64,000 nt of DNA from Sphingomonadales bacterium Ga0077559. Lineage in GTDB: Bacteria; Pseudomonadota; Alphaproteobacteria; Sphingomonadales; Sphingomonadaceae. Shown in pieces: positions 40,380 to 63,778 of the stretch. The notes beneath the pieces are model-generated. The model ran no database searches and was not told the DNA's origin. It saw nothing but the letters and a program-made list of their open reading frames with translations. Made by a program: the position numbers and the translations under genes. Location: contig LNFK01000040.1 of assembly GCA_001464315.1 (NCBI GenBank), forward strand, positions 32,607-96,606, given 5' to 3'. The first letter of the stretch is position 1. The number at the start of each line of letters is the position of its first letter.

Positions 40380-40810
40380 GGTGTGATTTTCGACAAGCCC
40401 AGGCTCTTTAATGGTGGGAGGTAAAAATAGGCTGAACCGAGCGGCGATGCCTCCAACGCTAAGCGGCATTACAATGCGCGTGGCATCCCTCTCGTTGCCC
40501 AAGCAGTCGAGCGGGGGGAGCTTGATATCGTTATCAATAACAAGGAAGCGATATCACATGGCCTCGCGGGGGGAGATGTTACCCGGAGAACTGCTTCCTG
40601 CTGACGTAGCTGCGCTACATGGTAATTATGTTCGTGTTTGGGGCGCGCTCTGGCTGGCAGGTGAGGTATTGCCGGCAGGCACCAATTCTATCGCCATCGA
40701 TATTCCGCATACAGGGTCCTACATCCCGAATGGCAATTTCGTCGTCGATGGGGCAAGCTATAAGCGAGGCGAGATGATCGAGCTGGGCGACGGAGATAAA
40801 TTCGCCAATG
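40380..40810 (+). pseudogene. Degenerate gene remnant (frameshift and stop codons), possibly the C-terminal part of a membrane glycosyltransferase-like protein
   Basis: Protein-like text in one frame (HYNARGIPLVAQAVERGELDIVINNKEAISHGLAG) continues in the adjacent frame (LLPADVAALHGNYVRVWGALWLAG). Stops at 40422 and 40428; no SD or plausible start. The family guess is from memory only. Confidence 0.45.
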
Positions 40811-42296
40811 CGGAGCGGTGCGACGGAAAATTTTGCGCACAGCCGCCGATGAAACGGTCAATTTGTTCCATATCCGCCAAGTCCATGCCTTCGGTAGACG
40901 CCAACAGCTTTGCATCAGGCGGAAACGTGCCGTAGCCTGCAAACAGGCAATGCCATGATAGCGAGCTGTAATAGCGGCCAATATCGAGACTATGGATTTC
41001 TGCTGACAGATCAGCACCGGTAAACCAAGCGGTCATCACCGATTTGAGATTATCCGACAGGTTTTGGTTAGCGGCATTGGCTCGCCAATAGTCGCTGTCA
41101 GTGCGCTGGTTCATCCTGTAGTGCGCAACGATATAGTCTCGGATTCCATCATAGCGATGCCCGATATTCTTATTGAAAGAAGACGCGTGTTTGTCGGACT
41201 GCCCGCCATCCTCAAAAGCCTGAATAAAGCCTTCGACCGTTGCCTGCACGATATGCAGCGCGGTTGCCTCCAGCGGTTCGATAAAGCCTTGTGACAGGCC
41301 GACTGCGAGGCAGTTTTTCACCCAGCTGCGTTCAACCCGACCGACGTTCATTTGCAAATGCCGCGCCTCGACGTCGCTGTCGAGCAACCCCAGATGACGC
41401 CGCAGTTCGTTTTCGGCGGCGTGGGTATCGATGTAATGCGACGAATAGACGTAGCCATTGCCCGCGCGGCCCGTCAGCGGAATGCGCCATGCCCAACCTG
41501 CCGAAAGCGCGGTGGCGCGGGTTTCGCTCGGCAGATAGCCCTCATCATTGGGTGTCGGCATCGCGACTGCACGGTTGTTGAACAGGTTTTCGGTGAAAGG
41601 TATGAAAGGTACTTTCAATGCCTTTTGAATAATCGCCCCGCGGAATCCGCTGCAGTCAATGAAGAAGTCGCCCGAGATCCCTTCGCTGCCCTCGACGTGA
41701 AGGGACGCGACACTGCCTTCCTCGTCCAGCATGACCTCGGACACTGTGCGCTCGAGATAGGCGACGTTAAGCTTGGTCGTCGCATGTTCGCGTAAAACAT
41801 GGCCAACCAAAACAGCATCAAAATGATAGCCATAGCCGATCTGGAACGGGAAATTAGTTGGCGCTATGGGCGCACGCCGTTCGGCGGCAATCCGCGCTGG
41901 CAGGAAGAACCGGTCAGGATGGGCATAGACATCACGCCCCGTCCGACGCGCGCGGGTGTGGAAGGCGAATTGTGGTTCGGTAAAACCGTCGAGATTGGTG
42001 TGAAACGGGTGAAAATAGCTCTCAAACCCCGGTCGCTCAGACCAGCCGTGAAAACTGATCCCGGCCTTATAGGTTGCATTGCATTTCGGCATCCATTCGG
42101 ATTCGGTAAGACCAAGCGTATCGAAAAACGCCTTCAATTGCGGCGTTGAACCTTCGCCGACGCCAATGATCCCGATGTCGGGAGACTCAACAACCGTAAC
42201 CTTATGCTGCGGCCATGTTTTTGCGACTAGGCAGGCGGCCATCCAGCCTGCTGTGCCGCCGCCTAGAACGACAAAGTGAAGTTGTTGCTCTGCCAT
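40758..42296 (-). CDS. Flavin-dependent tryptophan-halogenase-family protein (copy B)
   Basis: GGGTAGW, GVGEGS, conserved Lys (TYKAGI), WAWRIP, FIEPLEAT. ATG overlaps the upstream TAA. Confidence 0.9.
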   Translation of the reverse strand: MAEQQLHFVVLGGGTAGWMAACLVAKTWPQHKVTVVESPDIGIIGVGEGSTPQLKAFFDTLGLTESEWMPKCNATYKAGISFHGWSERPGFESYFHPFHTNLDGFTEPQFAFHTRARRTGRDVYAHPDRFFLPARIAAERRAPIAPTNFPFQIGYGYHFDAVLVGHVLREHATTKLNVAYLERTVSEVMLDEEGSVASLHVEGSEGISGDFFIDCSGFRGAIIQKALKVPFIPFTENLFNNRAVAMPTPNDEGYLPSETRATALSAGWAWRIPLTGRAGNGYVYSSHYIDTHAAENELRRHLGLLDSDVEARHLQMNVGRVERSWVKNCLAVGLSQGFIEPLEATALHIVQATVEGFIQAFEDGGQSDKHASSFNKNIGHRYDGIRDYIVAHYRMNQRTDSDYWRANAANQNLSDNLKSVMTAWFTGADLSAEIHSLDIGRYYSSLSWHCLFAGYGTFPPDAKLLASTEGMDLADMEQIDRFIGGCAQNFPSHRSALANLSPSPSSIISPRL

Positions 42297-43225
42297 TAGC
42301 GGAGTTGTAGCATCCAACCGAAGATATCGTCCATCCGCGCCGCCCAGGCATTTTCCTCGTGCGGCGTGCCTTCATATACTCGGCTGGAAAAATCGCGGCC
42401 GTTGCGCCAGCCGTTTGCAACCAACGCGGCGTCGAGATTTTCCTGATAGGGCTGGTAAAATGCATCGAGCGTTTCGGTACCATGGTCGAACCAGATCCGG
42501 CGGCCTCCGGGTTTCCCCAGCTCCTGCTTCACATAGGTCCGCCATGCCGCAAATATGTCCTCGCGCTCAGCCGAGGTCCAATTTGGATTGCCGAGCGGAA
42601 GATGCGTCGAAACTGCACCTGCCGTGCCAAAAACCTTCGGATATTTGGTTATGGCATAGAGCGAGATTAGCCCACCCATGCTCGAGCCAGCTATCGCGGT
42701 ATGCTTGCGGTCTTTTCTTGTACGATAATCGCGGTCGATTTTGGGTTTCAGTTCATCAACGATAAACTTCAGATATTCGTCAGAGATAATCGGTTTGCCG
42801 TTGCCCTGCGTCGCCAGCTTTTTGACGACCGCCGGGGAAAGCAAGTCGGCCATCACGTGCGGAAAATATTGTCGCCCGCGATCCTCGCCGGGCTGGTCGA
42901 TGCCGACGATGATGAATGGCTTGACTTTATTTGCCTCGATCAGGCGCAACGCCGATTTGTCCGCCGCCCAGACTTTGTTGAAATTCGAACGCTTGGGTTC
43001 GAACAGGTTCTGGCCGTCGTGCATGTAAACAACGCCATAGCGCCGCTTGGAGGCGTCATAACCAGGCGGTAACCACAGCACGACTTTGGTTGGCGCAATA
43101 TATTTCGACTGCAGTGCTCCCAAATCGACGAAACGCCCCTTATCGTGTGCCGATGCTTTCATCGGCATCAGTGCGACGACCGCGGTCGCGACCGATGATA
43201 CGATCAGCGAGCGCCGCCCGATCAC
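42296..43225 (-). CDS. Alpha/beta-hydrolase (putative esterase) with Tat-like signal peptide
   Basis: MIGRRSLIVSSVATAVVA..ASA, YMHDGQNLF, nucleophile elbow GSSMGG, DHG, terminal HEENAW. Confidence 0.88.
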   Translation of the reverse strand: MIGRRSLIVSSVATAVVALMPMKASAHDKGRFVDLGALQSKYIAPTKVVLWLPPGYDASKRRYGVVYMHDGQNLFEPKRSNFNKVWAADKSALRLIEANKVKPFIIVGIDQPGEDRGRQYFPHVMADLLSPAVVKKLATQGNGKPIISDEYLKFIVDELKPKIDRDYRTRKDRKHTAIAGSSMGGLISLYAITKYPKVFGTAGAVSTHLPLGNPNWTSAEREDIFAAWRTYVKQELGKPGGRRIWFDHGTETLDAFYQPYQENLDAALVANGWRNGRDFSSRVYEGTPHEENAWAARMDDIFGWMLQLR

Positions 43226-45267
43226 TTGCTCTCGACCAGCCGAATAGCAAAGCCGCCACCCGGAGCTATCCGCATATTAAGATCGTCGGTGCTGCTCAGC
43301 GTCTTGCTCTCAATCACAATCGAATGGCGCTTTTCGGTGCGATAGTCGGCATCGTCACCATCGCGATAAATTTCCGCTTTGTAGCTTTTCCCCGGTGTCA
43401 GGAAATCGAGCTTGAACGAAATTTCGCGCGCCTCTTCATCGCCGACTGCGCCAATATACCAGTTGTTGCCGCCGCGTTCCTTGCGCGCAATGGTCACGAA
43501 ATCACCAATCTCGCCGTTCAGCACGCGCGTGTCCTGCCAGTCGGTCGGAACATCGCGGATGAACTTCATTTCCTTTGGATATTTTGCGTAATTTTCAGGC
43601 GTATCAGCGACCATCTGCACCGGGGAATAGATCACTACGTATAATGCCAACTGTTTGGCGATCGTGGACAGGATATCGCTGTCCTCGCTGCCTTTCAGGC
43701 TCAATACGCCCGGGGTAAAGTCCATTGGGCCTTCTAGCATACGCGTGAACACGACATTAGCTTCATGCTCGGGCGGATTCTTGGCTCCGACCCACGCGTT
43801 ATATTCCATTCCGCGCATCCCTTCGCGCGCAACCCAATTGGGATAGGTGCGATGCAGGCCGGTACCCTTGACCGGCTCATGACTGTCGATGCCGATTTTA
43901 TACTCGGCGGCCTTTTCAATGACTCGAAGCTGGTGGTTCACCATCCACTGCCCCTGATGCCATTCGCGAAGCGTTTTGCCGTCGCCGTCCTGACGCTCCA
44001 TCTGAGCAGCATCAGTAACATAGCCTGTCTTCACCACCATATAGTCCCGGTCCGCAGCGAATTTGAAAGCCTTGTCGAACTGCTTTTCATAATGCGTCGC
44101 CGCGCCGCCGGTCTCGTGATGGCCGACCAGGCGAACGCCTTTTTTCTTGCCGTAAGCCACCAGCATATCCGCGTCGAAATCCTCGGTCGGCTGGGCAAAG
44201 TCCATATCATAGCCGTTGCCGAACCAGTCGCCGTCCCAGCCAACATTCCAGCCCTCAACCAGGAGGTGCGGAATCTTGTTTTCGGAAGCGAAATCAATGT
44301 AGCGCTTCACATTGGCATTGGTCGCGCCATGTTTCGGGCCGCGTGCCCATGACCATTCGCCCTTGATCATATTCCACCATACACCGGCGAACTTCCCGGG
44401 TTTGATGTAGCTGACATCGCCCAATTTGTTGGGTTCGTTAAGGTTCAGCATCAGGTGGCTGTGATAAATACCGGCCGGATCGTCAGCGATGATCAGAGTG
44501 CGCCATGGGGTGCTCCATGCACCCTTTTTCTGCACCTTGGGTTCACCCGCACCAGGATGGAGCGCGGCGCGGAGAGTGTTGCCTTCGGTCCGCGCTACGG
44601 CCATGCCCGAATAATCGACCAAGGCTGCCTCGTGCAGGGCAACATGCGTTCCGTCAGCCATCTTGATCGTCACTGGCGTATCGGCATTGGCAACGGCGGA
44701 AAGCGGCGTTTTGTTGTAGAGATATTCCTCGCGGTTCCACAGGAATGCGGGCTTCCACCATGCGATGCCATCGCTGGCAAAGGCGAATTCTGTCAGCTCC
44801 TCGGCGATATTGCTGTTCGCCATTTGGGGCTGCTCGGGAAATTCATATCGGAAGCCCACGCCGTCTTCGTAAAGCCGGAAGGTGACGGTGAAAACGCGCG
44901 CAAGCGCGGTGCTTTCTTTCAGATGCACCTTGAGTTCGCGGTAGCGGTTACGGATGCTTTGCCACTCGCCCCAAGGTTGGGTCCAGGTCTCATCGAAGTC
45001 GCGCACTTCCTGACCGGTAACGTTTAGGCGGCGGTCGATTTTTACTGCATCGGTAAACAGGAAACCAAGCCTCGACGGTGCCAAAATCGGTTTGCCCTTC
45101 CGGGTCACGGAATAAGCCGCGCGGCCATCGCCATCGATGGTGACGGCAACGCTGACTGCGCCATCGGGCGAAGACGCTTGGGCTACCGGGCGCGCGTTGG
45201 CGGAAGCCGCTGCGAGCAATGCTCCGCCCAGCGCTATAACCGAATATTTTATCTTCTTGCTGCCCAT
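43222..45267 (-). CDS. Glycoside hydrolase family 97 (alpha-glucosidase, SusB-like)
   Basis: Signal peptide; TPWRTLI, LNLNEP, EGWN, HHET, HEP, REGMRGMEY, GPMDFTPG. Confidence 0.93.
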   Translation of the reverse strand: MGSKKIKYSVIALGGALLAAASANARPVAQASSPDGAVSVAVTIDGDGRAAYSVTRKGKPILAPSRLGFLFTDAVKIDRRLNVTGQEVRDFDETWTQPWGEWQSIRNRYRELKVHLKESTALARVFTVTFRLYEDGVGFRYEFPEQPQMANSNIAEELTEFAFASDGIAWWKPAFLWNREEYLYNKTPLSAVANADTPVTIKMADGTHVALHEAALVDYSGMAVARTEGNTLRAALHPGAGEPKVQKKGAWSTPWRTLIIADDPAGIYHSHLMLNLNEPNKLGDVSYIKPGKFAGVWWNMIKGEWSWARGPKHGATNANVKRYIDFASENKIPHLLVEGWNVGWDGDWFGNGYDMDFAQPTEDFDADMLVAYGKKKGVRLVGHHETGGAATHYEKQFDKAFKFAADRDYMVVKTGYVTDAAQMERQDGDGKTLREWHQGQWMVNHQLRVIEKAAEYKIGIDSHEPVKGTGLHRTYPNWVAREGMRGMEYNAWVGAKNPPEHEANVVFTRMLEGPMDFTPGVLSLKGSEDSDILSTIAKQLALYVVIYSPVQMVADTPENYAKYPKEMKFIRDVPTDWQDTRVLNGEIGDFVTIARKERGGNNWYIGAVGDEEAREISFKLDFLTPGKSYKAEIYRDGDDADYRTEKRHSIVIESKTLSSTDDLNMRIAPGGGFAIRLVESK

Positions 45268-45278
45268 ATTCCGCCTCC

Positions 45279-46904
45279 TTAAGCGATTTTTTCCATGACT
45301 TTTGCGCCATAAGCCGGAAGCGAACCCGGCGTGGCATCGTTTTCCGACTTCACCATCCGCCAGCGGTCTGGCTGTGCCGGTTGCCAATTAGTGTCTTCGC
45401 CGCCCATGTTAAACGCGCAGATAAGATGCTGATTTGCGCTGCGGCGCTCGAACACCAACAGATCGGATTGTGCTTCAATGATGTGTAAGTCGCCGATCAA
45501 CATCGCTTCATTGACATTGCGAAACGCGATGAGCTTGCGCGTTAATGCCAGCATTGAATCGGCGTCCAGTTCCTGTCTGTCGACCGACATCGCCTGATGA
45601 TCAGGGCCGAGCGGCAACCAAGGCTCGGCAACGCTGAAACCGCCGTTCAACGCTTCTGCTGACCAAGGCATCGGCGTGCGCGTCCCGTCTCGACTGAGCG
45701 TCAGTGGCCAATTGGCAATGGCTTCCGGGTCTTGAAGCTTGTCGAACGGGATTTCGACTTGAGTGAGGCCAAGCTCTTCGCCCTGCCACAATATGACATT
45801 GCCGCGTAGACAGGCGAACAGCATCATCACCATCCGCGCATAGGCGTCGCGCGCATCGACCGGTGCCCAACGGCTAATCCAACGCGGGGCGTCATGGTTC
45901 GAAAATGCCCATGATGGCCAACCAATTCCATCGGTATCGGGCCAAGCCTCCAATGCCTCGCGCACCAATGCGGGCGTCAGATGTTCGGCATAGAGAAAGT
46001 TGAATCCGTAGGCGCTGTTGAAGTGGGACTCACCGGCAGTGAAAGCCTTCATTTCGCGGTCAGGGTCAGGGCCGCCTACTTCTGCCACGGTAAACCGGTC
46101 TGGATACATGTCGGTCAAAGCGCGGATGCGTGCAATGAAGTCGGGAATGTCCGGGTGCGACTGGTTGTTCACCTTCAACTGGAAGTCAAACGGCCGCGTC
46201 CGGACTCCGTTTCCGGCTGGGGCTGGCGGGTTATCCTTGAGTTCCGGATCATGCATCGCGAAGTTGATTGCGTCGACACGGAAACCGTCGACGCCGCGGT
46301 CCAACCAGAATGCGGCAACCCCCAACAGCGCATCCTGAACCACTGGATTATGGACATTCAACTGCGGCTGACTGCTCAGGAAGTTGTGCATATAATATTG
46401 GCCACGCCGCGCGTCCCACGTCCATGCCGGGCCGCCGAATACCGATTGCCAGTTATTCGGCGGGGTGCCGTCGGACTTGGCATCGGCCCAAACATACCAG
46501 TCGGCCTTAGCGTTATCGCGGTTCGCCCGACTCTCGGCGAACCAAGCATGCAGATCCGACGTATGGGAATACACCTGATCGATCAGGACTTTGAGTCCGA
46601 CCGAATGCGCTTTAGCGACCAAGTTATCAAAATCATTGAGTGTTCCGAAAATCGGGTCGACGCCGCAATAATCGGCGACGTCATAGCCAAAATCCTTCAT
46701 CGGCGAAGTGAAGAAGGGCGACAGCCAGATCGCATCGACGCCCAATGACGCGACATAATCGAGCTTGCCAGTAATCCCCGGCAAATCGCCAATGCCGTCG
46801 CCGTTGGAATCGGCGAAGCTGCGCGGATAGACCTGATAAATGCTCGCGCCGCGCCACCACGGTCGTTCGGTTTTTGTGGCTTCTATGGGGAGGGGGTCAC
46901 TCAT
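45279..46904 (-). CDS. GH13 alpha-glucosidase (cytoplasmic)
   Basis: YQVYPRSF, DFGYDV, catalytic GFRVDA / VAEV / SNHD, DGTRTPM; no signal peptide. Confidence 0.93.
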   Translation of the reverse strand: MSDPLPIEATKTERPWWRGASIYQVYPRSFADSNGDGIGDLPGITGKLDYVASLGVDAIWLSPFFTSPMKDFGYDVADYCGVDPIFGTLNDFDNLVAKAHSVGLKVLIDQVYSHTSDLHAWFAESRANRDNAKADWYVWADAKSDGTPPNNWQSVFGGPAWTWDARRGQYYMHNFLSSQPQLNVHNPVVQDALLGVAAFWLDRGVDGFRVDAINFAMHDPELKDNPPAPAGNGVRTRPFDFQLKVNNQSHPDIPDFIARIRALTDMYPDRFTVAEVGGPDPDREMKAFTAGESHFNSAYGFNFLYAEHLTPALVREALEAWPDTDGIGWPSWAFSNHDAPRWISRWAPVDARDAYARMVMMLFACLRGNVILWQGEELGLTQVEIPFDKLQDPEAIANWPLTLSRDGTRTPMPWSAEALNGGFSVAEPWLPLGPDHQAMSVDRQELDADSMLALTRKLIAFRNVNEAMLIGDLHIIEAQSDLLVFERRSANQHLICAFNMGGEDTNWQPAQPDRWRMVKSENDATPGSLPAYGAKVMEKIA

Positions 46905-48601
46905 TTTACTTTGCACACCATATAACCAAAAGCAGGAAGGGAAATCGCGACCGAGCCGGGCAAGCGCGGTGCAGCCGGGCAACTACCGCGCAGCGCGGTT
47001 AATGCAGTCGCAGCTTGGCCGATTTCGACATTGGCGTTGAGCGGTGCATTGGAAGTGTTGAACGCCACCAGTACTTCCTCGCCCGATGCGCTGTCGATCC
47101 GCGATACGGCAAACAGTCCGGGCTTTTCGCCATAATTGCGAACAATCTGGTCGCCGCGCCGCAACGCAATTTGCTCGCTGCGGAGTTTGGCGAGATCGGC
47201 CACGGCCTTGTAGATCGGGTGGCCTGTATCAAAATTACTGTCGGCCGTCGTAGCGCTCGTTCCGACCAGTTTATTGTCATTGTAGACCGCGACTTTCGAC
47301 GGGAACATATCCTCGCGTGCGTCCTGATCATTACCATCTCCGGCAAAACCCTGCTCATCGCCCGAGTAGATTGTAGGTACCCCGCGAAGGGTCATTAGCA
47401 TCGCGTGGCCAAGCAAGACGCGCTGCAATATTTCGGAATCGTCGGCATTTGGATGCGCCAAGCGCATCTCGCGCGCGAAACGACCGAAATCATGATTGCC
47501 GAGGAAGGTCGGCAACTGCTTTGCGGTCGCCTTGCCGCCTTCGTACAAATCGTCGCCTTCGAACATCGTCGCGAAAAGGTCGGTGCCCGCACGTCCGGCG
47601 ACGGTTTCAATAGCGGTGCGGCGGAATACGAAATCGAGCACCGACGGAAACTTCGCAATCCGCGTGTGCAACGCTTGTGCCTGAACATCCACTCCATCCG
47701 ATGCAACTTCTCCGAAAACATGGAAATTAGGGATGCCTTTAGCCTTGGCATGTTCCACAATAGCAGGTGCAAATTTTACCCAGAATTCGGGATGGACGTG
47801 GCGCGCTGTGTCGATCCGGTAGCCATCTATTCCGAAGCGGTCGATCCAGCCTTTATAGACCTCGATAAAGCCATCGATAACGCGCGGGTCGGTGGTTGCA
47901 AAATCGTCAAGGCCGACAAAATCGCCCATGACCGAATTCTCACCCTTGAATGTCGTGTCGCCGCGATTGTGATAATATTGGACATCGTTCATCCATGCCG
48001 GGACTTTGATGTTTTTCTCGGCTTCGGGAACGACGGGCGTATAGGCCTTTTGCGGATAGTCGGCGCGGCTGCGATAGGCGCATTTCACACATTCGGCATA
48101 TTGGATGACGTCGGCGCTGTGGTTGGTAATGATGTCCATATATACCTTCATCCCGCGCTTGTGCGCTGCGTCGACGAAGGCCTTGAATTCGGCATCGGTA
48201 CCGAAGTGCGGGTCGACGGTGGTGAAATCGGTCACCCAATATCCGTGGTAGCCCGCCGATTCCTCGCCCTTGCCGCCTTGCACCGGCTTGTTCTTGAAAA
48301 TCGGTGCAAACCAGATCGCGGTCGCGCCCATGCCCTGGATATAATCGAGCCGCTTGATCAACCCCGCCAAATCGCCGCCGTGGAAGAAACCTTTATGCGT
48401 GGGGTCGAAGCCATGCTGCATCTTGTCGCCCTTCAACCCGCCTTTGTCGTTCTTGACGTCGCCATTTTCAAAGCGGTCGGGCAGGACAAAATAAATGACT
48501 TCGTCTTCGGGCAGGCGGTCGCGATGCGATTGCGCAGCGAGCGGTGCGGTAAATACATTTGCCAACAGGCTGGCGCCGAGCCAAAGTTTCTTTAACGTCA
48601 T
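46901..48601 (-). CDS. Exported GH13 alpha-amylase/neopullulanase-like enzyme
   Basis: Signal peptide; YFVLPDRF, YHGYW, catalytic GYRIDT / FGEV / GNHD. Confidence 0.92.
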   Translation of the reverse strand: MTLKKLWLGASLLANVFTAPLAAQSHRDRLPEDEVIYFVLPDRFENGDVKNDKGGLKGDKMQHGFDPTHKGFFHGGDLAGLIKRLDYIQGMGATAIWFAPIFKNKPVQGGKGEESAGYHGYWVTDFTTVDPHFGTDAEFKAFVDAAHKRGMKVYMDIITNHSADVIQYAECVKCAYRSRADYPQKAYTPVVPEAEKNIKVPAWMNDVQYYHNRGDTTFKGENSVMGDFVGLDDFATTDPRVIDGFIEVYKGWIDRFGIDGYRIDTARHVHPEFWVKFAPAIVEHAKAKGIPNFHVFGEVASDGVDVQAQALHTRIAKFPSVLDFVFRRTAIETVAGRAGTDLFATMFEGDDLYEGGKATAKQLPTFLGNHDFGRFAREMRLAHPNADDSEILQRVLLGHAMLMTLRGVPTIYSGDEQGFAGDGNDQDAREDMFPSKVAVYNDNKLVGTSATTADSNFDTGHPIYKAVADLAKLRSEQIALRRGDQIVRNYGEKPGLFAVSRIDSASGEEVLVAFNTSNAPLNANVEIGQAATALTALRGSCPAAPRLPGSVAISLPAFGYMVCKVK

Positions 48602-50121
48602 GGCAGGGCCTTTTTCATTTCGAGGAGAGGGGCGGCGCAATTGGCGGCGATATAATCCTGATGGAGCGGCATTCGTCCCGCGACATGTGCCGCATGATTT
48701 TGCGCGACATTGATGAATTCAGCGAGTTGCTCCGACGTGAGTTGGTCTGCGAGCGGGTGATAGCCTTGGGGGCGCAACCCTTGTCCCCACATCACCTGAA
48801 GCCAGCCCAGTTCGGTGAACAGCTCCTCGCCCACACGGACAATGCGACCATTGGCTTTGAACAGATCGATCTTAGCGGCGAGGCTATCGGGTATCGCCAT
48901 ATTCCGGCATTGCCGCCAGAATTCGCCGGGGCGGTTGTTGGCTTTATAATGCAATATGATGAAATCGCGGATAGAGTGGAATTCGAAATCCATCTGCCCG
49001 TTGAAGGCGTCAATGTCGGGTTGGTCGAAACCGGCGGTCGGGAAGAAATTCAGCAACTTGGCTATGCCAGACTGGATCAGATGAATACTGGTCGATTCCA
49101 ACGGCTCCAGAAACCCGCTCGACAGCCCCAGGGCAACGCAATTCTTCTTCCAGATTTGACGCCGTTTGCCTGTTACAAAACGCAACTGCCGCGGCTTGGC
49201 CAATGCTCCGCCATCGAGATTTGACATGAGGGTATCGGTCGCATCGGCGTCGCTGACAAAATCGCTGCAATAGACGTAGCCATTGCCGGTGCGGTGCTGC
49301 AACGGGATGCGCCACTGCCATCCGGCGTCGCGCGCGGTCGACCGGGTATAGGGAGTGAGTGGATTGACAGATGCGCATGGCACGGCCACCGCGCGATTGC
49401 AGGGCAGATAATTCGACCAATTCTCATAGCCGCTTTGCAGCGCTTGCTCGATCAGCAGACCGCGAAAACCCGAGCAGTCGATGAACAGGTCTCCATCGAC
49501 CGTCTCGCCGGACATCAATTTTACCGCATCGATAAAACCTGTCTCAGCATTCAACTCGACGTCGACGACTTCGCCTTCGGTCCTGACAACATCCCGCGCC
49601 TCGGCATATTTCCGCAAGAACTGCGCGTAGAGACCAGCGTCGAAATGATAGGCGTAAGCCACGCCGCTTGGCAGGCTGCCCGGCTTTTCCTGCGGGCGAG
49701 CGAAGCGGTTTTCGGCGGCTGCCAATGCGGCCGGCGCGTAGTCCCACAGCGACGATGTTCCGCCCTGCTGGCGATGCCGCAACCAATATTGGTGAAACGG
49801 CAGTAGCCCCAATGGCCGCCCGATTTGTCCGAAAGCATGGATATAGCGATGCCCCGGCTCAGCCCAGTCGGCAAATTCAATGCCAAGCTTGAACGACCCT
49901 TGTGTCGCGCGGATGAACTCGTTTTCGGCGATGCCAAGGCTTTGGTTGAAAAGCTGGATGGCGGGTATGGTCGCTTCACCGACACCGATCGTGCCGATGT
50001 CGTCGGACTCAATAAGCCGTATCGAATAGTCCGGCCCCAGAAATCGAGCAAAGGCAGACGCGGCCATCCAGCCGGCTGTTCCTCCTCCTACTATCACGAT
50101 CTGTTTCAGAGCGCTCTCCAT
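48598..50121 (-). CDS. Flavin-dependent tryptophan-halogenase-family protein (copy A)
   Basis: GGGTAGW, GVGEATIP, conserved Lys (SFKLGI), WQWRIP, FLEPLESTSI. GGAG SD before ATG 50121. Confidence 0.92.
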   Translation of the reverse strand: MESALKQIVIVGGGTAGWMAASAFARFLGPDYSIRLIESDDIGTIGVGEATIPAIQLFNQSLGIAENEFIRATQGSFKLGIEFADWAEPGHRYIHAFGQIGRPLGLLPFHQYWLRHRQQGGTSSLWDYAPAALAAAENRFARPQEKPGSLPSGVAYAYHFDAGLYAQFLRKYAEARDVVRTEGEVVDVELNAETGFIDAVKLMSGETVDGDLFIDCSGFRGLLIEQALQSGYENWSNYLPCNRAVAVPCASVNPLTPYTRSTARDAGWQWRIPLQHRTGNGYVYCSDFVSDADATDTLMSNLDGGALAKPRQLRFVTGKRRQIWKKNCVALGLSSGFLEPLESTSIHLIQSGIAKLLNFFPTAGFDQPDIDAFNGQMDFEFHSIRDFIILHYKANNRPGEFWRQCRNMAIPDSLAAKIDLFKANGRIVRVGEELFTELGWLQVMWGQGLRPQGYHPLADQLTSEQLAEFINVAQNHAAHVAGRMPLHQDYIAANCAAPLLEMKKALP

Positions 50122-50138
50122 GCTCTCCACTTACCGAC

Positions 50139-50187
50139 AAAAAAGGCCCCCGCCACGTCAGGAATTTTTCCTACCGCGGCGGGGGCC
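50139..50187 (-). terminator. Terminator-like hairpin between the TBDR and halogenase A
   Basis: GGCCCCCGCC (50145-50154) / GGCGGGGGCC (50178-50187) stem with an inner AGGAA/TTCCT stem, followed by T6 on the minus strand. Confidence 0.75.
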
Positions 50188-50200
50188 GATGATTAGCTCA

Positions 50201-52918
50201 TCAGAACTTGAAGGTGAACCCAGCGAGGAACCGGCGACCGTAGATTTGGTAATCGATCACCTGGTTACGGGACGCGCCAACCGATGCAAAACGCTCGTCG
50301 GTCAGGTTCTGGCCTTGCAAATAAACCGAAAGTCCCTGAAGCGCGCTGCCATCTTGGAAGTCGTATCCGATCTGGCCATCGACAATCAATTCGGCAAGCG
50401 CGGTACGCCGCGTTGGCGATCCGCCAAAACCGGTGAAGTCGCCGAGGAACGTCGAACGATAGCGAACGGAACCGCGGGCGTTAAAGCCCCATTTTTCGAA
50501 GTAGGCGGTACCGTTGGCGACCCATTTCGAATAGCCGGGAATCTGGTCAACATTGCCTTGCGCATCTTTAATCTTGGTCTTGGTGTAGCCGACGCCGCCG
50601 GTTACGCCAAAGCCGTCAAGCGCTTCGCTGATGTTGCTGAAGGGCAGGGTGACTGCGAGTTCAGCTCCATAAAGCTTGCCGCCGCCGGTGTTGAACGACG
50701 ATTCCAGACGTCCGATCAGCGTTGCAGGCGGTAACCCGGTTGGAAGTGGATAGCCTGCAAAATCAAATGGAAAGCGCGTACGGTCGATGTAGCTCTTGAT
50801 GTCCTTGTGGAAAAGTTGGAGCGAAATAAGGCCCGAATTTCCGAAATATTTTTCAAAGTTCAAGTCAAACGCGTTTGCGCGATAAGGACGCAATTGCGGG
50901 TTACCACCATTGCCATCGATGAACGGTGCCAAGCCTGTCGGACTGTCGGCTATTGTATTGTTGATGCCATAAGAAACCGCAACGCGCAGATCGTCCAACC
51001 GTGGGCGCTGTATCTGACGTGATGCGGCAAATCGAATAACGAAATCGCTGTCAAACCGCATCGACAGGTTAAGGCTGGGCAGTACATCCCAATAGCTGGT
51101 GCTGGCCCGGACCGAGCGAGCAACGCCGCCAGCGAATACAGTTCCAGAAGAACCCTGATCGGTGTGTATCGCCTGCACGCCGATGTTACCAGTCAACGTG
51201 CCACTGCCCATTTCCTGCTCGATATCGGCCTGCAAATAGGCCGTCATCAGGTCTTCGGTGACATTATATGCCTTTGCCGGAATATCTGGCGAAAGGTTGC
51301 GGTCAAGCACCAGCGTACCATCAGCGATCAGGTCACGCGCGTCGTAACTGACGATCGGACCCAAGCCAAGGTAGCCCAGATTGGTTGGGCGCAGCAACGC
51401 ACCGGCAGGGATCGGCAACTCCAACGCACCGCCGCGCAGCCGGACGAGAAACTCATCAGGAGTCAGGCTTTTCTGTCGGTCGGTATAATTGAGGCCGAAT
51501 TTGATGGCCGAGAAAAAGCCTTCGACTTCCTTCTCCACACCGACGCGATATTGCTTCAGTTCGTCTTCGATAATGCGGTTATTGTAATAGCCAGCCTGCG
51601 GAACAACACCGCCACCCCAGCCGAGTGGATCGGTTAAGCGAATAAGCGCGGGGTTGCTGTAATCGAGCGTGGGATCGAACACCGTTCCCGATGGACCCGA
51701 TGTAAAGCGGATTGTGTCGGTCGCCCCCAAGCTCTGGCCAAAGCCGGTGCCCGAATATGCTTCAATGCTCAACTCATTGCGGTCGGTTCGCGAATAGCCG
51801 ACGTCGATAAACGCCTTCCAGCCATCGTCACCCTTATATTCTGCGTTATAGCCGAACGAGTAAAGATCGGCCTTGCGCTGGAAAATATCGTTGCGAACCA
51901 CGCCTTGCACATTGTTGAAAGTACCGGCGGTGACAAATCCGTCGGAAACTGTGGTACCCGTCGGTCCCGTTGTGCCGAACGCGCCGAAGCCCAAGGGCAA
52001 TTCAATGCCGCGCTTCGACTGGTCGTCTTCGAAATTCGAATAGAAACCATCGAACGTCATGCGGATCGTGTCCGACGCTTGAAATTGCAACGTGCCGTTA
52101 AGGCCAAGGCGTTTCAGCTGAGTTGATGTGACAAAGGATTTCGAACCACCAATGACGGCAGGCGATGCTGCTGTGCCTGCACCGGCATAACCCCAGGCGT
52201 TGAACTCCTGAAGCTGGTAGGGCTCGTCGACATAAGACGCCGACAACGCCAGTCCGATTGTGTCATCGGCAAACTGGTCGATATAAGTAGCATTGGCGCG
52301 GTAGCCGTATTTCTTGGAACCTGCGTTCAGTGCACCGAGATCGGCATAAGTGCCGCGCGCACCGATGGCGAGGACTTGCTTGCCATAGTCGAGCGGACGG
52401 ACGGTGCGGATGTCGATGGTGCCGACAAGACCTTGCCCTACGAGCGACGCAGTTGGCGATTTGTAGACAACAACCTGACTGACGATTTCAGAAGGATATT
52501 GGTCGAACTCGACCGCGCGGCTGTCACCGGTCGAGGTTTGCTCGCGACCATTCAGGACGGTTTGCGAAAAGTCGGGGCCGAAGCCGCGGATCGAGATGTT
52601 GTTCGAACGGCCGTTCAGGCGCTGCGATGTGACGCCGGGAAGGCGGGCAATGGACTCGCCGATAGATGCGTCCGGAAGCTTGCCAATATCTTCGGCTGAA
52701 ACCGACTCAACAATCTGGTCGTTGTTTTTCTTTTCATTGACCGCATTCTCCAGCGAAGCGCGGAAACCCGAGACGACGATGGCGTCTTCATCTTCGTCGG
52801 CAGGCGCATCTTGCGCAAACGCTGGTGCAGCAAATGCAGCAACAATTGCGGTGCCCAGCGCAAAGCGGCTGGCACTATGCGCGAAACGGCGCGCATTATT
52901 AAACTGGAACTTGGCCAT
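50201..52918 (-). CDS. TonB-dependent receptor, probable maltodextrin uptake (MalA-like)
   Basis: Signal peptide, IVVSGFRASL, DIGKLPD, ESIARLPGV, terminal F (FTFKF); neighbours are GH13/GH97 genes and a LacI gene. Confidence 0.9.
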   Translation of the reverse strand: MAKFQFNNARRFAHSASRFALGTAIVAAFAAPAFAQDAPADEDEDAIVVSGFRASLENAVNEKKNNDQIVESVSAEDIGKLPDASIGESIARLPGVTSQRLNGRSNNISIRGFGPDFSQTVLNGREQTSTGDSRAVEFDQYPSEIVSQVVVYKSPTASLVGQGLVGTIDIRTVRPLDYGKQVLAIGARGTYADLGALNAGSKKYGYRANATYIDQFADDTIGLALSASYVDEPYQLQEFNAWGYAGAGTAASPAVIGGSKSFVTSTQLKRLGLNGTLQFQASDTIRMTFDGFYSNFEDDQSKRGIELPLGFGAFGTTGPTGTTVSDGFVTAGTFNNVQGVVRNDIFQRKADLYSFGYNAEYKGDDGWKAFIDVGYSRTDRNELSIEAYSGTGFGQSLGATDTIRFTSGPSGTVFDPTLDYSNPALIRLTDPLGWGGGVVPQAGYYNNRIIEDELKQYRVGVEKEVEGFFSAIKFGLNYTDRQKSLTPDEFLVRLRGGALELPIPAGALLRPTNLGYLGLGPIVSYDARDLIADGTLVLDRNLSPDIPAKAYNVTEDLMTAYLQADIEQEMGSGTLTGNIGVQAIHTDQGSSGTVFAGGVARSVRASTSYWDVLPSLNLSMRFDSDFVIRFAASRQIQRPRLDDLRVAVSYGINNTIADSPTGLAPFIDGNGGNPQLRPYRANAFDLNFEKYFGNSGLISLQLFHKDIKSYIDRTRFPFDFAGYPLPTGLPPATLIGRLESSFNTGGGKLYGAELAVTLPFSNISEALDGFGVTGGVGYTKTKIKDAQGNVDQIPGYSKWVANGTAYFEKWGFNARGSVRYRSTFLGDFTGFGGSPTRRTALAELIVDGQIGYDFQDGSALQGLSVYLQGQNLTDERFASVGASRNQVIDYQIYGRRFLAGFTFKF

Positions 52919-53056
52919 GATTGACTCCCCTAAATGGTTCCGTCCAATTTGAAGGGCGGTAACCGGCTACATTTGCGCATCCAGACGCTGGCCGACATGA
53001 ATGCAATTATGACCATGACAAAATGCGCCTCAACCCCGGGATTGACCACAAATCCA

Positions 53057-53067
53057 CATACGTATTC
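53057..53067. promoter_or_regulatory. Candidate LacI-family operator (ATACGTAT core)
   Basis: CATACGTATTC palindromic core with central CG, in the TBDR/LacI divergent region; the same core recurs at 54239. Confidence 0.6.
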
Positions 53068-53198
53068 AGAATATGCATTTTAAACTGTTGCAATTTTGCA
53101 ACAAGTTATGACCATCGCGCAAACGCTTTTCCCCGTCATTGCTTCAACTATCTGGTAAGCCTAAGACGAGTTCAGGAGCTGGAAAGGCGCTGACCGGA

Positions 53199-54224
53199 AT
53201 GGCAGGCAAGGCCACATCATTTGATATCGCGCAGCTGGCAGGCGTATCGCAACCCACGGTGTCGCGTGCGCTTCGCGGCAGTCCCACGGTATCCGAGCAA
53301 ACGCGCAAACGCATCGAAGCCATTGCGCAGCAACTCAATTACAAGGTCGACAAGAACGCATCGAATTTGCGGCTACAGGCAACGCGGACATTGGCCTTGC
53401 TGTTCTTCGAAGATCCGACGCCCGATGAAACAGGTATAAATCCGTTCTTTCTCTCAATGCTCGGTTCGCTCACCCGAACCTGCGCGCATCGCGGGTATGA
53501 CCTCCTCATTTCATTCCAGCAGCTCTCATCGAACTGGCATGTGGATTACGAGGATAGCCGCAAGGCTGATGGAATCATACTCCTCGGCTATGGCGATTAC
53601 GAGTTATACCGGGCGAAGCTCGAGCAATTGGTGGAGCAAGGAACGCATTTTGTGCGTTGGGGCTTTGCGCAGGAAGGACAGCCCGGCACAACAATCGGAT
53701 GCGATAACTTCCGGGGTGGTCTCGATGCTGCGCGGCATCTGATGCAACATGGACGGCGCAAGATTGCCTTTCTGGGCGACGCGAGCAGCCATTATCCTGA
53801 ATTTCAGGACCGCTATCGCGGCTCGTGCGAAGCGCAAGGCGGGGAGGGCATCATCGCCAACCCCAAACTTCAAATCGATGCATTGAACTCGCAGGATGCA
53901 GGATTTGAAGCCGCGCAAACGCTGATCGCGAGCGGCGAGCAATTTGACGCGATCTTTGCAGCCAGCGACACTATAGCGATCGGCGCCATGCAGGCGCTAC
54001 GCGATCATGCAATCAACATACCCGAAGATGTCGCAATCGTCGGCTTTGACGATATTCCGGCAGCCAGTTTGACCCACCCTCCGCTGACTACCATCCAGCA
54101 AAATTACAAGCTTGCCGGCGAATTGCTGGTTGATGGCGTACTCAAGCAAATCCGGAACGAGCAGGTGCCTACCGCTTTGCTTCCAGCAAAGTTAATTGTG
54201 CGGCAATCGTGCGGCGCGCACTAG
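53199..54224 (+). CDS. LacI-family transcriptional regulator (MalR/MalI-like)
   Basis: HTH SFDIAQLAGVSQPTVSRAL, sugar-binding domain, IVGFDD, PPLTTI. Confidence 0.93.
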   Translation: MAGKATSFDIAQLAGVSQPTVSRALRGSPTVSEQTRKRIEAIAQQLNYKVDKNASNLRLQATRTLALLFFEDPTPDETGINPFFLSMLGSLTRTCAHRGYDLLISFQQLSSNWHVDYEDSRKADGIILLGYGDYELYRAKLEQLVEQGTHFVRWGFAQEGQPGTTIGCDNFRGGLDAARHLMQHGRRKIAFLGDASSHYPEFQDRYRGSCEAQGGEGIIANPKLQIDALNSQDAGFEAAQTLIASGEQFDAIFAASDTIAIGAMQALRDHAINIPEDVAIVGFDDIPAASLTHPPLTTIQQNYKLAGELLVDGVLKQIRNEQVPTALLPAKLIVRQSCGAH

Positions 54225-54237
54225 CTCTGCGCTTCCT

Positions 54238-54248
54238 TATACGTATGC
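54238..54248. promoter_or_regulatory. Second candidate LacI operator, upstream of the MFS gene
   Basis: TATACGTATGC; same ATACGTAT core, ~90 bp before the MFS start. Confidence 0.55.
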
Positions 54249-54336
54249 GTAACCGCTAAACCGGCGTCCTGCCATTGCAGGGTTTCTTTGTTTCTGTCAG
54301 CGTCTCCTGACAATAACACCTTGGGAGAGGGCGTCA

Positions 54337-55827
54337 GTGGAAAAACCACGTCAGGGATACAGAGGGCTGTGGAATATCAGCTTCGGCTTTTTCGGTATTC
54401 AGATCGGCTTTGCCCTTCAGAACGGTAACATGTCGCGTATTTTCCAATCGCTCGGCACCAGCCTTGATGATTTGCCTGCACTTTGGATTGCGGCGCCGCT
54501 AACCGGGCTATTGGTGCAGCCGCTTATCGGTCATTTCAGCGACCGAACTTGGTTCGGCAGACTTGGCCGCCGCCGTCCCTATTTCCTTGCGGGCGCTATT
54601 CTCGCGGCATTGTCTTTGCTCGCGATGCCAATGGCGGAAGTCCTGTTGTTCGCCGCTGTAATGCTATGGGTTTTGGACGCATCGCTTAACATTTCGATGG
54701 AGCCGTTTCGTGCATTTGTCGGCGATATGTTGCGCAAGGATCAGCACACGGCAGGCTATGCCGTGCAGACCGCATTCATCGGCGCTGGCGCAGTGGTAGG
54801 TTCGGTCTTTCCTTATCTGCTCGACGCATGGGGCGTGGCGAACGTCGCGCCAGACGGGCAGATCCCGGACACCGTCAAATTTAGTTTCTGGTTCGGCGGC
54901 GTTGCTTTGTTTCTGGCCGTGATGTGGACCATCTTGACCACGAAAGAATATAGCCCGGCCGAAATGGAGGCTTTCGACGGACCGCCAGCCGATAGCGGTG
55001 CCACAATCCGCGCCTTGGCCGCACGGTCGACGGGTGGTGCAGGGATTTGGATCATTGCAGGCGCTGTGGTCGCTGCGCTGGTGCCATTGGGTGGTCTGGA
55101 GAAGGAAGTCTATCTGCTCGGAGCCTTGCTGGCGGGTTATGGCATCGCCAGCCTGCTAGCCATCAACCTCGCGAAATCGGGCCGCGACAATAATGTGCTC
55201 TCCCACATCGTGGGCGATTTTTCCGGAATGCCCGACATCATGAAAAAGCTCGCATTGGCGCAGTTTTTCAGCTGGTCGGCATTGTTCATCATGTGGATTT
55301 ATACCACGCCTGTGGTGGCGCAATATATGTTCGGTTCGGCTGACCCGAACAGCGCAGCTTATGGCGAAGGTGGCAACTGGGTCGGCACCTTATTCGCCAT
55401 ATACAACGGCGTGGCTGCCCTTGCTGCGCTGTTCGTGCTGCCAACGCTGGCCAAGAAAATCGGTAAAGTGAACACGCATATCATCTGCTTGCTGGCAGGC
55501 GCGGCGGGCTATGCCAGCTTTCTGTTCATTCGCGATCCCAATCTACTCATCGTGTCTGAAATCGGCGTGGGCATCGCCTGGGCATCGATCCTTGCTATGC
55601 CATACGCTATCTTGGCCTCCAGCTTGCCGCAAAACAAACTCGGCATCTATATGGGTCTGTTCAACGTGTTCATCGTAATGCCGCAACTGCTCGTGGCAAC
55701 CGTGATGGGAAGCATATTGAAAGCATTTTTCCCAACCGAACCGATCTGGACCATGGCCTTTGCCGCCGTGGTCATGGCACTAGCGGCACTCGCCATGTTG
55801 CGCGTGAAAGAAGAGGCGTCAGATTGA
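54337..55827 (+). CDS. MFS sugar transporter (maltose/sucrose, GPH-like)
   Basis: GFFGIQIGFALQ, GHFSDRTW.RLGRRRPY, MEPFRAFVGD, GIYMGLFN. Confidence 0.9.
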   Translation: MEKPRQGYRGLWNISFGFFGIQIGFALQNGNMSRIFQSLGTSLDDLPALWIAAPLTGLLVQPLIGHFSDRTWFGRLGRRRPYFLAGAILAALSLLAMPMAEVLLFAAVMLWVLDASLNISMEPFRAFVGDMLRKDQHTAGYAVQTAFIGAGAVVGSVFPYLLDAWGVANVAPDGQIPDTVKFSFWFGGVALFLAVMWTILTTKEYSPAEMEAFDGPPADSGATIRALAARSTGGAGIWIIAGAVVAALVPLGGLEKEVYLLGALLAGYGIASLLAINLAKSGRDNNVLSHIVGDFSGMPDIMKKLALAQFFSWSALFIMWIYTTPVVAQYMFGSADPNSAAYGEGGNWVGTLFAIYNGVAALAALFVLPTLAKKIGKVNTHIICLLAGAAGYASFLFIRDPNLLIVSEIGVGIAWASILAMPYAILASSLPQNKLGIYMGLFNVFIVMPQLLVATVMGSILKAFFPTEPIWTMAFAAVVMALAALAMLRVKEEASD

Positions 55828-62900: not shown

Positions 62901-63778
62901 GTGGCCGCTATCCTGATTGGTCGACCGACGGCAAGGACTGGCCGAACCGCGAGGCCAGCAGCTTTGTTCGCGCGGGCGGCTATGAATGGCATGTGCAGAA
63001 GATGGGCGATGGACCTATATGCTTGCTCATCCACGGCACTGGCGCGGCAACGCATAGCTGGCGCGATGTCATGCCGTTGCTGGCCAAGCATCACACCGTC
63101 GTCGCGATGGACCTGCCCGGTCACGGATTTACCAAAGGCATGGGGCAGAGGCCGACGCTGGAGGGCATGGCGGCATCCGTCGCGGCATTGCTCGACGAAC
63201 TCAAAATCACCCCGACCCTCATCGTCGGCCACAGCGCTGGCGTTGCCATCGCAGCGCAGCTCTTGCTCGACCGCAAATGGCAGATACCACTCATCGGTTT
63301 CACCCCCGCCCTGATGCCATTCCCCGGCCTTGCAGCAAAGATTTTCCCGAGCCTCGCTAAAATGCTGTTCACCAACCCGTTCGTAGCGATCATCTTCTCG
63401 CGAATGGCACAAGCCCCAGGCCAGACCAGGAAATTCCTGGCGCGCTCGACCGGATCGAACATCGACCCGGCAGGCGCGAAGTATTACACTTTCCTGTTCA
63501 GCAAATCAGGCCACTGCGACGGCGCAATCCGCATGATGGCCAACTGGCGGCTGGAGGCGTTGGGAGCAAGGCTCGGCAATCTTGCGTCCCCCGTGCTGCT
63601 GGTCAGCGCAGCCAAAGACGCAGCCATCCCCAAAGCGGCGGTGATGCAAGCGGTTGCGTTAATCCCCGGTTGCGAGACGCAGGAGATGGCCGCCCTGGGC
63701 CATCTGGCGCATGAGGAAGATTCAGCGCAGGCGACGAATATCATCACCGAATTTGCCAAGACGAAAATGACGGCATAA
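62897..63778 (+). CDS. bchO: Alpha/beta hydrolase BchO
   Basis: WPNREASSFV, HGTGAATHSW, DLPGHGF, GHSAG, HLAHEE; directly follows bchID. Confidence 0.9.
   Translation: MSGRYPDWSTDGKDWPNREASSFVRAGGYEWHVQKMGDGPICLLIHGTGAATHSWRDVMPLLAKHHTVVAMDLPGHGFTKGMGQRPTLEGMAASVAALLDELKITPTLIVGHSAGVAIAAQLLLDRKWQIPLIGFTPALMPFPGLAAKIFPSLAKMLFTNPFVAIIFSRMAQAPGQTRKFLARSTGSNIDPAGAKYYTFLFSKSGHCDGAIRMMANWRLEALGARLGNLASPVLLVSAAKDAAIPKAAVMQAVALIPGCETQEMAALGHLAHEEDSAQATNIITEFAKTKMTA

Follow-up and report, generated by a model that had tools for sequence, protein, structure and literature searches.

Introduction

Genes of the PF04820 family that lie beside genes for TonB-dependent receptors (TBDRs) are very common in environmental Proteobacteria, where their presence is commonly taken as a sign of halogenated natural-product synthesis or of environmental organohalogen cycling. 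Here, we report a computational analysis of two such genes, halA and halB, which form part of an alpha-glucan utilisation locus (positions 40758-55827) in a stretch of 64,000 nucleotides from Sphingomonadales bacterium Ga0077559 (GenBank assembly GCA_001464315.1, contig LNFK01000040.1, positions 32,607 to 96,606), called the window throughout.

A neighbourhood of this kind was described by Iyer, Abhiman, de Souza & Aravind (2010), in which a TonB-class receptor is accompanied by one to three tryptophan halogenases, SapC and JmjC/2-oxoglutarate (2OG) oxygenases in alpha- and gamma-proteobacteria (PMC2938197). The Rossmann fold and the catalytic lysine of those halogenases are intact, and their product was predicted to be a halogenated siderophore-like compound (PMC2938197). 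Besides that study, we found in the full-text literature no paper on the function or regulation of TBDR-linked halogenases. Work on single enzymes of the group (BrvH, Xcc4156 and the protein of structure 9luq) has been concerned with biocatalysis and not with their genomic or physiological setting. Indole derivatives, and not tryptophan, are brominated by BrvH and the Xanthomonas enzymes, their native substrates being unknown according to the authors (PMC5945002, PMC7336383). The receptor-linked halogenases are a real and widespread enigma, although their association with TBDRs was published as early as 2010.

On the sugar side, the proteobacterial "CUT" (carbohydrate-utilisation TBDR) locus was defined by Blanvillain et al. 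(PMC1790865). The Xanthomonas maltodextrin locus described there comprises the TBDR XCC2469, a cyclodextrin glucanotransferase (CGTase), two alpha-glucosidases, a transporter and a repressor; XCC2469 is induced by maltose and was described as an orthologue of Caulobacter MalA (PMC1790865).

Compared with the neighbourhood of 2010, the window locus likewise has a TBDR gene followed by adjacent halogenase genes with intact motifs. However, it sits inside a glycoside hydrolase (GH) operon, neither SapC nor a JmjC/2OG oxygenase is found among its nine genes, and by gene content the siderophore prediction does not fit it. With the MalA locus of Caulobacter crescentus and the XCC2469 locus of Xanthomonas it shares a TIGR01782-type TBDR, GH13 enzymes and alpha-glucosidases, an inner-membrane transporter and a LacI-type repressor; whereas the published description of those loci includes neither halogenase nor esterase, here a coupled block of six genes, with two halogenase genes and an esterase gene among them, stands behind the receptor. 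The logic of an outer-membrane TonB-dependent transporter combined with a GH13 amylase and a GH97 alpha-glucosidase of the SusB type is also that of the Bacteroides Sus system. In contrast to Sus, which has no flavoprotein, the window locus has no SusD/E/F lipoprotein, its regulator is LacI and not SusR, and its importer is of the MFS type. Judged by these comparisons, the locus is a reduced form of a known neighbourhood, with halogenases only, that is fused into a sugar locus of known type. The original prediction, made from the sequence of the window, had proposed an undescribed system; this claim had to be given up, as the TBDR-halogenase neighbourhood was described with a predicted function in 2010 (PMC2938197), and BrvH and Xcc4156 have been crystallised and assayed.

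Results

A predicted LacI-controlled alpha-glucan locus with two halogenase genes

Genes were taken from a listing of open reading frames (ORFs) and their translations, and families from Pfam and NCBIfam scans. To pick start codons, we considered Shine-Dalgarno sequences in front of them, signal peptides and how long the homologues are. All nine genes named in the original prediction were found at their positions, and their families were verified in these scans. The features of the locus are as follows.

50201-52918, minus strand: TBDR of the Xanthomonas/Caulobacter carbohydrate type, with Plug (PF07715) and barrel (PF00593) domains and a signal peptide
50145-50187, minus strand: terminator- or attenuator-like hairpin with 20-nt arms, followed by TTTTTT
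48598-50121, minus strand: halA, predicted cytoplasmic flavin-dependent halogenase of the BrvH/Xcc4156 type, PF04820 (638 bits), 507 amino acids from the ATG at 50121, Shine-Dalgarno GGAG, without signal peptide
46901-48601, minus strand: exported GH13 (GH13e), PF00128, alpha-amylase/CGTase-like, signal peptide MTLKKLWLGASLLANVFTAPLAAQS
45279-46904, minus strand: cytoplasmic GH13 (GH13c), predicted alpha-glucosidase, PF00128 (396 bits), without signal peptide
43222-45267, minus strand: GH97, predicted periplasmic alpha-glucosidase of the SusB type, with GH97_N, GH97 and GH97_C domains and a signal peptide
42296-43225, minus strand: predicted exported esterase, carbohydrate esterase family 1 (CE1)/feruloyl-esterase-like, PF00756 (108 bits), GTG start, RR-containing signal-like N-terminus
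40758-42296, minus strand: halB, PF04820 (418 bits), predicted second cytoplasmic flavin-dependent halogenase
53086-53103, strand not applicable: palindrome of 8+2+8 nt, TGTTGCAAttTTGCAACA, candidate operator of the LacI family
53200-54224, plus strand: LacI-family repressor, PF00356 and periplasmic-binding-like domains; likely start at the ATG at 53200 (53139 in the longest ORF)
54337-55827, plus strand: MFS/GPH-type sugar symporter, PF07690, PF13347, TIGR01301-like

The core of these genes is almost certainly a maltodextrin-type TBDR system, that is, an alpha-glucan CUT locus. All components of a CUT locus are present, namely a TBDR, carbohydrate-active enzymes for one substrate, an inner-membrane transporter and a regulator. 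The receptor scored 581 bits against TIGR01782 ("TonB-Xanth-Caul"; cutoff 310) in the NCBIfam scan and so belongs to the Xanthomonas/Caulobacter subfamily, as expected of a MalA-type receptor. Among solved structures, GH97 matched an alpha-glucosidase (5hq4, E 8e-200) and SusB (1e-144) far better than a retaining alpha-galactosidase (1e-66); the best structure for GH13c was the QsGH13 alpha-glucosidase (7voh, E 4e-235), and those for GH13e were alpha-amylases and CGTases. The family and structure matches thereby agree with the maltodextrin-type core that had been proposed from the sequence.

N-termini resembling signal peptides were present in the TBDR, GH13e, GH97 and the esterase and not in GH13c, HalA or HalB. 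Going by the characterised families, maltodextrins would enter the periplasm through the receptor and be trimmed there by the exported GH13 amylase and by the GH97 alpha-glucosidase, and the MFS symporter would carry maltose or short dextrins inward, where GH13c would free glucose in the cytoplasm. The region as a whole is best explained as a LacI-controlled locus for alpha-glucan (maltodextrin, starch or glycogen) of the proteobacterial TBDR "CUT" type, and the host is a freshwater Sphingorhabdus-like sphingomonad.

As had been noted in the original prediction, lacI and the MFS gene (plus strand) diverge from the receptor gene (minus strand). Orthologues of both are found at the same position in related loci (60-71% identity for lacI and 60-77% for the MFS gene), and orthologues of the receptor (57-90% identity) are the first gene of the same operon in other sphingomonads. 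The palindrome between the divergent TBDR and lacI genes is perfect and occurs once in the window. Its sequence was not conserved in the orthologous intergenic regions, so that its role as a LacI operator is only tentative. A hairpin with a T-rich tail lies in the gap between lacI and the MFS gene (54266-54283).

Judged from their translations, the neighbouring genes are UDP-glucose dehydrogenase-like and cysDN-like at one end of the locus, while an RND efflux pair lies at the other end. Since these flanking genes are unrelated, the unit is well delimited. An ORF of 174 amino acids (40411-40935, plus strand) runs towards halB, shares about 180 nt with the 3' end of that gene and, in its central portion, is reminiscent of a small beta-rich domain. 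As it had no Pfam hit, it was treated as probably spurious and not as a real gene.

Six coupled genes behind a hairpin

The sequence at the gene junctions showed exactly the pattern of four overlaps and one 11-nt gap with a Shine-Dalgarno sequence that the original prediction had described. Stop and start codons overlap as ATGA at both the halA/GH13e and the GH13e/GH13c junctions, as GTGA at GH97/esterase and as TAATG at esterase/halB. At the GH13c/GH97 junction, the TAA is followed by the 11 nt GGAGGCGGAAT, which contain GGAGG, and then by the ATG. By contrast, the receptor gene and halA are uncoupled: they are separated by a spacer of 77 nt (minimum free energy -45 kcal/mol) that holds the inverted repeat with its 20-nt arms and TTTTTT on the coding strand behind it. 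The ATG of halA lies only 24 nt further on. The architecture is therefore receptor, hairpin, and halA-GH13-GH13-GH97-esterase-halB.

Because the stretch from the hairpin to halA is too short for a promoter and the start of GH13e overlaps the stop of halA, the two halogenase genes can hardly be expressed separately from the glycosidases, unless halA contains an internal promoter. Co-transcription is a likely arrangement, which we hold with good though not full confidence. The hairpin most likely sets a high ratio of receptor to enzymes, which it would do through partial termination or through stabilisation of the transcript. Sequencing runs with DNA of the window came from drinking-water, activated-carbon and freshwater metagenomes, and no RNA run containing the window was found. 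Two soil metatranscriptomes compared with the orthologous locus of Sphingopyxis (L021) yielded only a few contigs of 36-506 nt, which are uninformative on co-transcription.

Related loci from the comparisons described below carry L numbers. The 48 spacers between a TBDR and a halogenase gene that were compared in them always measured at least 68 nt. A simple detector found a hairpin with a T-run behind the receptor stop in at least 30 of the 48, and RNAfold shows a hairpin in most of the others. In nearly every TBDR-halogenase pair of L001-L134, across three proteobacterial classes, the stop codon of the receptor gene is followed by a GC-rich hairpin, in most cases with a T-run, whose structure is kept and whose sequence is not. 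In L006, the spacer has 365 nt and contains tandem repeats of the heptamer GGGGCAC(G/A) after the terminator hairpin.

HalA and HalB as predicted non-tryptophan halogenases

Both proteins matched PF04820 (Pfam gathering cutoff 21 bits), and each has at least 8000 close homologues. The FAD motif GxGxxG reads GGGTAGW in both and is nearly invariant among the HalA orthologues. The WxWxIP motif (GWQWRIPL in HalA, GWAWRIPL in HalB) aligns with GWMWTIPL of PyrH and with the motifs of BrvH and Xcc4156. Likewise, SFKLGI and GFLEPLES of HalA and TYKAGI and GFIEPLEA of HalB align with YKLGI and FVEPLES of PyrH. These segments hold the lysine of the F/YK-x-GI motif, at the position of PrnA K79 and PyrH K75, and the glutamate of FxEPLES, which we take to be the catalytic residues. 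In 12 HalA orthologues (65-87% identity), K81, W271, W273, I275, P276, E342 and E345 were invariant.

The solved structures closest to HalA were 9luq (E 5e-154) and those of Xcc4156 (6y1w) and BrvH (6frl), with a range of E 1e-142 to 1e-154 over the three, all of which align with it over nearly the full length and have identical catalytic motifs. HalB, which differs from these biocatalysts in belonging to a separate lineage, is 34% identical to HalA and scored about equally with tryptophan 5/6-halogenases and with the BrvH group. A motif table for tryptophan flavin-dependent halogenases (FDHs), which sets apart a "group C" of non-tryptophan enzymes, has been published (PMC8269204). Of the tryptophan-binding motifs, HPFE[QR] is replaced by HAFGQ in HalA and HPFHT in HalB, and YYHG..YS is absent from both; HalA carries instead the ATIPxx and HxFGx signatures of group C. 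Since the tryptophan-binding motifs are absent, neither protein should be named a tryptophan halogenase, and by their motifs both fall with the group C non-tryptophan halogenases.

Judging from the conserved residues, HalA and HalB probably perform true halogenase chemistry, a prediction in which we place somewhat more belief than doubt. With FADH2 from a reductase encoded elsewhere, oxygen and halide, they would halogenate an electron-rich aromatic compound other than free tryptophan. As the two are only 34% identical, they probably differ in substrate or in the position that is attacked. In a freshwater Sphingomonas, a transposon hit in a "tryptophan halogenase" gene changed colony morphology, in a single insertion (PMC11340318).

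Recurrence of the halogenase-bearing operon

To place the locus among its relatives, the 80 best-matching loci of a HalA alignment scan with one genome per species were compared. Genes were labelled mainly by tblastn with the window proteins at fixed thresholds, next to a caller aware of GC content at third codon positions (GC3). The operon order recurred in at least 15 independent loci of other species and is, for this reason, not due to chance. In Sphingomonadales, MFS and lacI genes diverge from TBDR-halA-GH13e-GH13c-GH97-(esterase)-halB (for example, in L001-L005, L019, L021, L026 and L046); in L007, L008 and L048, a contig end cuts the locus and only part of the operon is seen. Among the carriers of the operon are the cultured strains Sphingomonas aquatica LMG 28596 (L004), Sphingopyxis sp. 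H115 and MSC1_008 (L026 and L021) and Chakrabartia godavariana PRB40 (L046). HalB homologues looked up independently (L081 and L082; 68-70% identity) close the same operon.

A similar TBDR lay directly upstream of the HalA orthologue in 46 of the 68 loci with enough upstream sequence, and a TBDR of another subtype did so in at least six more. GH13 or GH97 genes were present in the available flanks (up to 10 kb) of 33 of the 54 HalA loci with 5 kb on both sides. The linkage extends beyond Sphingomonadales. In Lysobacterales (L014, L022, L023 and L058), genes for GH97, GH13c, the MFS symporter, LacI and the esterase surround the HalA orthologue and are arranged differently. In Burkholderiales, the TBDR-halA pair either precedes the gene for an ABC transporter that has the maltose-specific MalF_P2 domain (L033) or adjoins GH13 genes, and in Caulobacterales, too, HalA orthologues are found near alpha-glucan genes (GH97, GH13, MFS, LacI or MalF). 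A minority of HalA loci contains GH3 or the "putative glucoamylase" PF10091, that is, belongs to other glucan loci.

Relative to the nearest operon (L001), the ratio of nonsynonymous to synonymous substitution rates (dN/dS) was 0.07-0.10 for the halogenase genes and 0.04-0.19 for the other operon genes, values that are only a rough indicator of constraint because synonymous sites are saturated (dS >1). They are a rough sign that the halogenase genes have been under purifying selection like the glycosidase genes. Given this and the recurrence in many species, the presence of the halogenases and the esterase is not accidental.

Several side observations were made in these loci. GH13e is 57% identical to its counterpart in L001 (4530-6353), compared with 77-90% for the flanking operon genes, which suggests gene replacement or fast evolution of GH13e. 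Three to five tandem halogenase paralogues (25-57% identity to HalA) stand behind one large TBDR in L011, L015 (3986-11494), L076 and L035. A DUF6445 protein of 235 amino acids directly follows the halA orthologue in L016, and an ORF of 235 amino acids is found at the same place in L017 and L027; this protein may be a further companion that recurs with TBDR-halogenase pairs. In Xanthomonas euvesicatoria (L069, 6653-9901), a CarboxypepD_reg-type TBDR just upstream of the halogenase gene is split into two ORFs and is probably a frameshifted pseudogene.

In Lysobacter brunescens (L014, 3-3990), a cassette of halogenase, SapC, Cupin_8 (JmjC) and halogenase genes adjoins those for the esterase, GH97, halA, GH13c, MFS and LacI, so that the "siderophore-like" neighbourhood of 2010 is physically linked there to an alpha-glucan locus. 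L082 (13271-21503) has another receptor-halogenase pair with a TPR/2OG-FeII_Oxy_5 protein behind it, next to GH68, ROK kinase and lacI genes; this is a locus of the sucrose/fructan type on the same contig as the alpha-glucan operon.

Sister operons without halogenase genes

The comparison was also made from the side of the glycosidases. A scan of metagenomes with a GH97 alignment gave 80 loci, often short. The operon contains halA and/or halB in L086, L091-L093 and L114 and lacks both in L083 and L089, where the receptor gene is directly followed by GH13e-GH13c-GH97 and, in L083, the esterase gene; further GH97 loci lack halogenase genes as well (L087, L124, L105-L107 and L110). For the 19 TBDR genes of these loci with enough downstream sequence, the next gene encodes a halogenase in eight, GH13e in two and another protein in nine. 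Where 5 kb were available on both sides of GH97, 10 of 28 loci have a halogenase gene and 9 of 28 an esterase gene. Hence, halogenases are not rarely linked to GH13/GH97 loci, a question raised along with the original prediction, as both the 33 of 54 HalA loci given above and the 8 of 19 receptors show.

In a neighbour-joining tree of 70 receptors, computed without support values, the receptors of halogenase-less loci fell into several small groups nested among the halogenase-linked ones, a pattern that suggests repeated loss of the halogenase genes. From the sister operons and this tree it follows that the halogenases and the esterase are frequent, selected accessories and not obligatory for alpha-glucan uptake. 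The earlier proposal that the flavoproteins and the esterase act in alpha-glucan foraging therefore stands in part: they are conserved, coupled operon members under purifying selection, but the halogenases are accessory, as L083 and L089 and the nested halogenase-less receptors indicate.

The esterase

The serine motif GSSMG was invariant in 20 orthologues of the esterase, a PF00756 alpha/beta hydrolase with the GxSxG nucleophile of the CE1 fold. With its AlphaFold model (pLDDT 82), Foldseek returned CE1 feruloyl esterases first and siderophore esterases after them (E 1e-15 to 1e-11), at TM-scores of 0.5-0.65 and identities of 16-22%; phmmer matches to characterised CE1 members (E 1e-7) covered partial stretches only. 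The PF00756 fold and GxSxG are shared with the CE1 enzymes XynZ, BT_4077 and Bacint_04212 and with the siderophore esterases EstB, IroE and Fes. Unlike these, the window protein has no CBM48 and lies in an alpha-glucan locus, not in a xylan or iron locus.

Esterase chemistry is credible. Going by the fold only, the enzyme would most likely strip acyl decorations (hydroxycinnamoyl or acetyl) off imported glucosides. A connection with the halogenases is possible, given that CE1-type enzymes release sugar-bound phenolic acids and halogenases attack electron-rich aromatics; because the two kinds of gene come and go independently, we do not rely on it.

Discussion

The explanation that we favour is a glucan CUT locus with optional halogenases that make or modify a halogenated aromatic compound, to which, taken as a whole, we give even odds. 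HalA and HalB would be optional passengers of the receptor module that stand outside glucan breakdown, and their likeliest role would be to produce or alter a halogenated aromatic metabolite during feeding on glycans. That the product is a small molecule with an ecological role is a more tentative proposal, which we would rather doubt than assert. Several points speak against this explanation. Neither a flavin reductase nor scaffold genes of the nonribosomal peptide synthetase (NRPS) or polyketide synthase type were found among the nine locus genes or the 17 other scanned ORFs of the window, so a biosynthetic product has no visible pathway there, and the combination that marks a secondary-metabolite cluster, a scaffold enzyme and a dedicated flavin reductase beside the halogenase, is absent. 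The activity of BrvH on indole in vitro is very low (PMC5945002). Halide is scarce in the fresh water of the host, while the nearest characterised enzymes prefer bromide. It is also conceivable that halA contains an internal promoter or that transcription terminates strongly at the hairpin. Finally, HalA orthologues follow glucan-type loci over three proteobacterial classes, which hints at a sugar-related specificity that a generic halometabolite role does not explain.

As an alternative, the halogenases might act on a peptide or protein, namely on tryptophan or tyrosine of a locus-encoded or co-regulated product before its export, as a post-translational layer of TBDR-dependent glycan uptake. 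This is an unlikely reading, though one with several points in its favour: MibH, whose substrate is a peptide, is one of the non-tryptophan FDHs (PMC8269204); BrvH has an open active site that could take larger substrates (PMC5945002); related loci pair halogenases with SapC, JmjC/Cupin_8 and 2OG-Fe(II) oxygenases (L014 and L082), families that include protein modifiers (PMC2938197), or have DUF6445; and HalA orthologues go with the class of sugar that the receptor serves. However, a precursor-peptide gene, a protease and an exporter are all absent from the genes of the window locus, the halogenases are dispensable in sister operons, and halogenated outer-membrane or periplasmic proteins have no experimental precedent. 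In a wider form that we also consider improbable, and slightly more so, receptor-linked halogenases would be sugar-class-specific partners of glycan TBDRs and would carry out an unrecognised step of polysaccharide foraging, either on the aromatic part of an imported glycoside, with the esterase acting on the same decoration, or on a protein or peptide of the locus. If this were true, thousands of environmental "tryptophan halogenase" genes would serve to acquire nutrients rather than to make antibiotics. The halogenase-less sister operons argue for an accessory role and so limit how central the halogenases can be to glycan uptake.

The remaining explanations detach the halogenases from glycans or from halogenation. 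At the sugar-unrelated end, the TBDR-halogenase pair would be an inherited cassette and its halogenases co-transcribed passengers without functional link to the locus. The repeated loss of halogenase genes from otherwise identical operons agrees with this, as does the occurrence of TBDR-halogenase pairs beside GH3, GH144-like and GH68 genes and in tandem halogenase arrays; but purifying selection equal to that on the glycosidases, start/stop overlaps kept with the glycosidase genes and a linkage that spans Alpha-, Beta- and Gammaproteobacteria make it as unlikely as a peptide target. A further reading, no better placed than the wider sugar-partner proposal, is that the flavoproteins do not halogenate in vivo and serve as monooxygenases or oxidases, or in a non-catalytic regulatory or structural role tied to the receptor. 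For no member of the clade is a native halogenated product known, the freshwater habitat is low in halide, and no partner reductase is encoded nearby. Yet the lysine, the WxWxIP motif, which blocks monooxygenation, and the glutamate of EPLES are invariant across orthologues, and the near-full-length relatives with E-values of 1e-142 to 1e-146 do halogenate in vitro. By far the least probable is a reading that follows the prediction published for TBDR-halogenase-SapC-JmjC neighbourhoods (PMC2938197), in which the locus, or only its receptor-halogenase module, would produce a halogenated siderophore-like compound and take it up again. Although the fold of the esterase also resembles EstB, IroE and Fes, the receptor is of the carbohydrate type TIGR01782 and is encoded together with GH13, GH97, LacI and a sugar MFS protein; NRPS or other scaffold genes, SapC and JmjC are missing from the locus, and maltose induces XCC2469 of the similar Xanthomonas locus (PMC1790865). 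For the window locus, we rejected the siderophore reading on gene content.

The locus also has a practical side. One group of orthologous halogenases is wired, through start/stop overlaps with glycosidase genes, into a catabolic operon that is probably sugar-regulated, which calls for caution in reading such genes as parts of antibiotic clusters, and the context of the locus offers a concrete and cheap experimental handle on receptor-linked halogenases.

Other features of the window

Outside the locus, a second, smaller TBDR of 759 amino acids is encoded at 872-3151. On its 5' side, the side that was inspected, its neighbour is a PALP-family gene (3208-4200, plus strand) and not a halogenase gene. 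At 60208-63778, consecutive genes encode a Mg-chelatase ChlI-like AAA protein, a BchD-like protein with AAA_lid_2 and VWA domains, and an alpha/beta hydrolase. As this order resembles bchI-bchD-bchO of the photosynthesis gene cluster, the host may be an aerobic anoxygenic phototroph.

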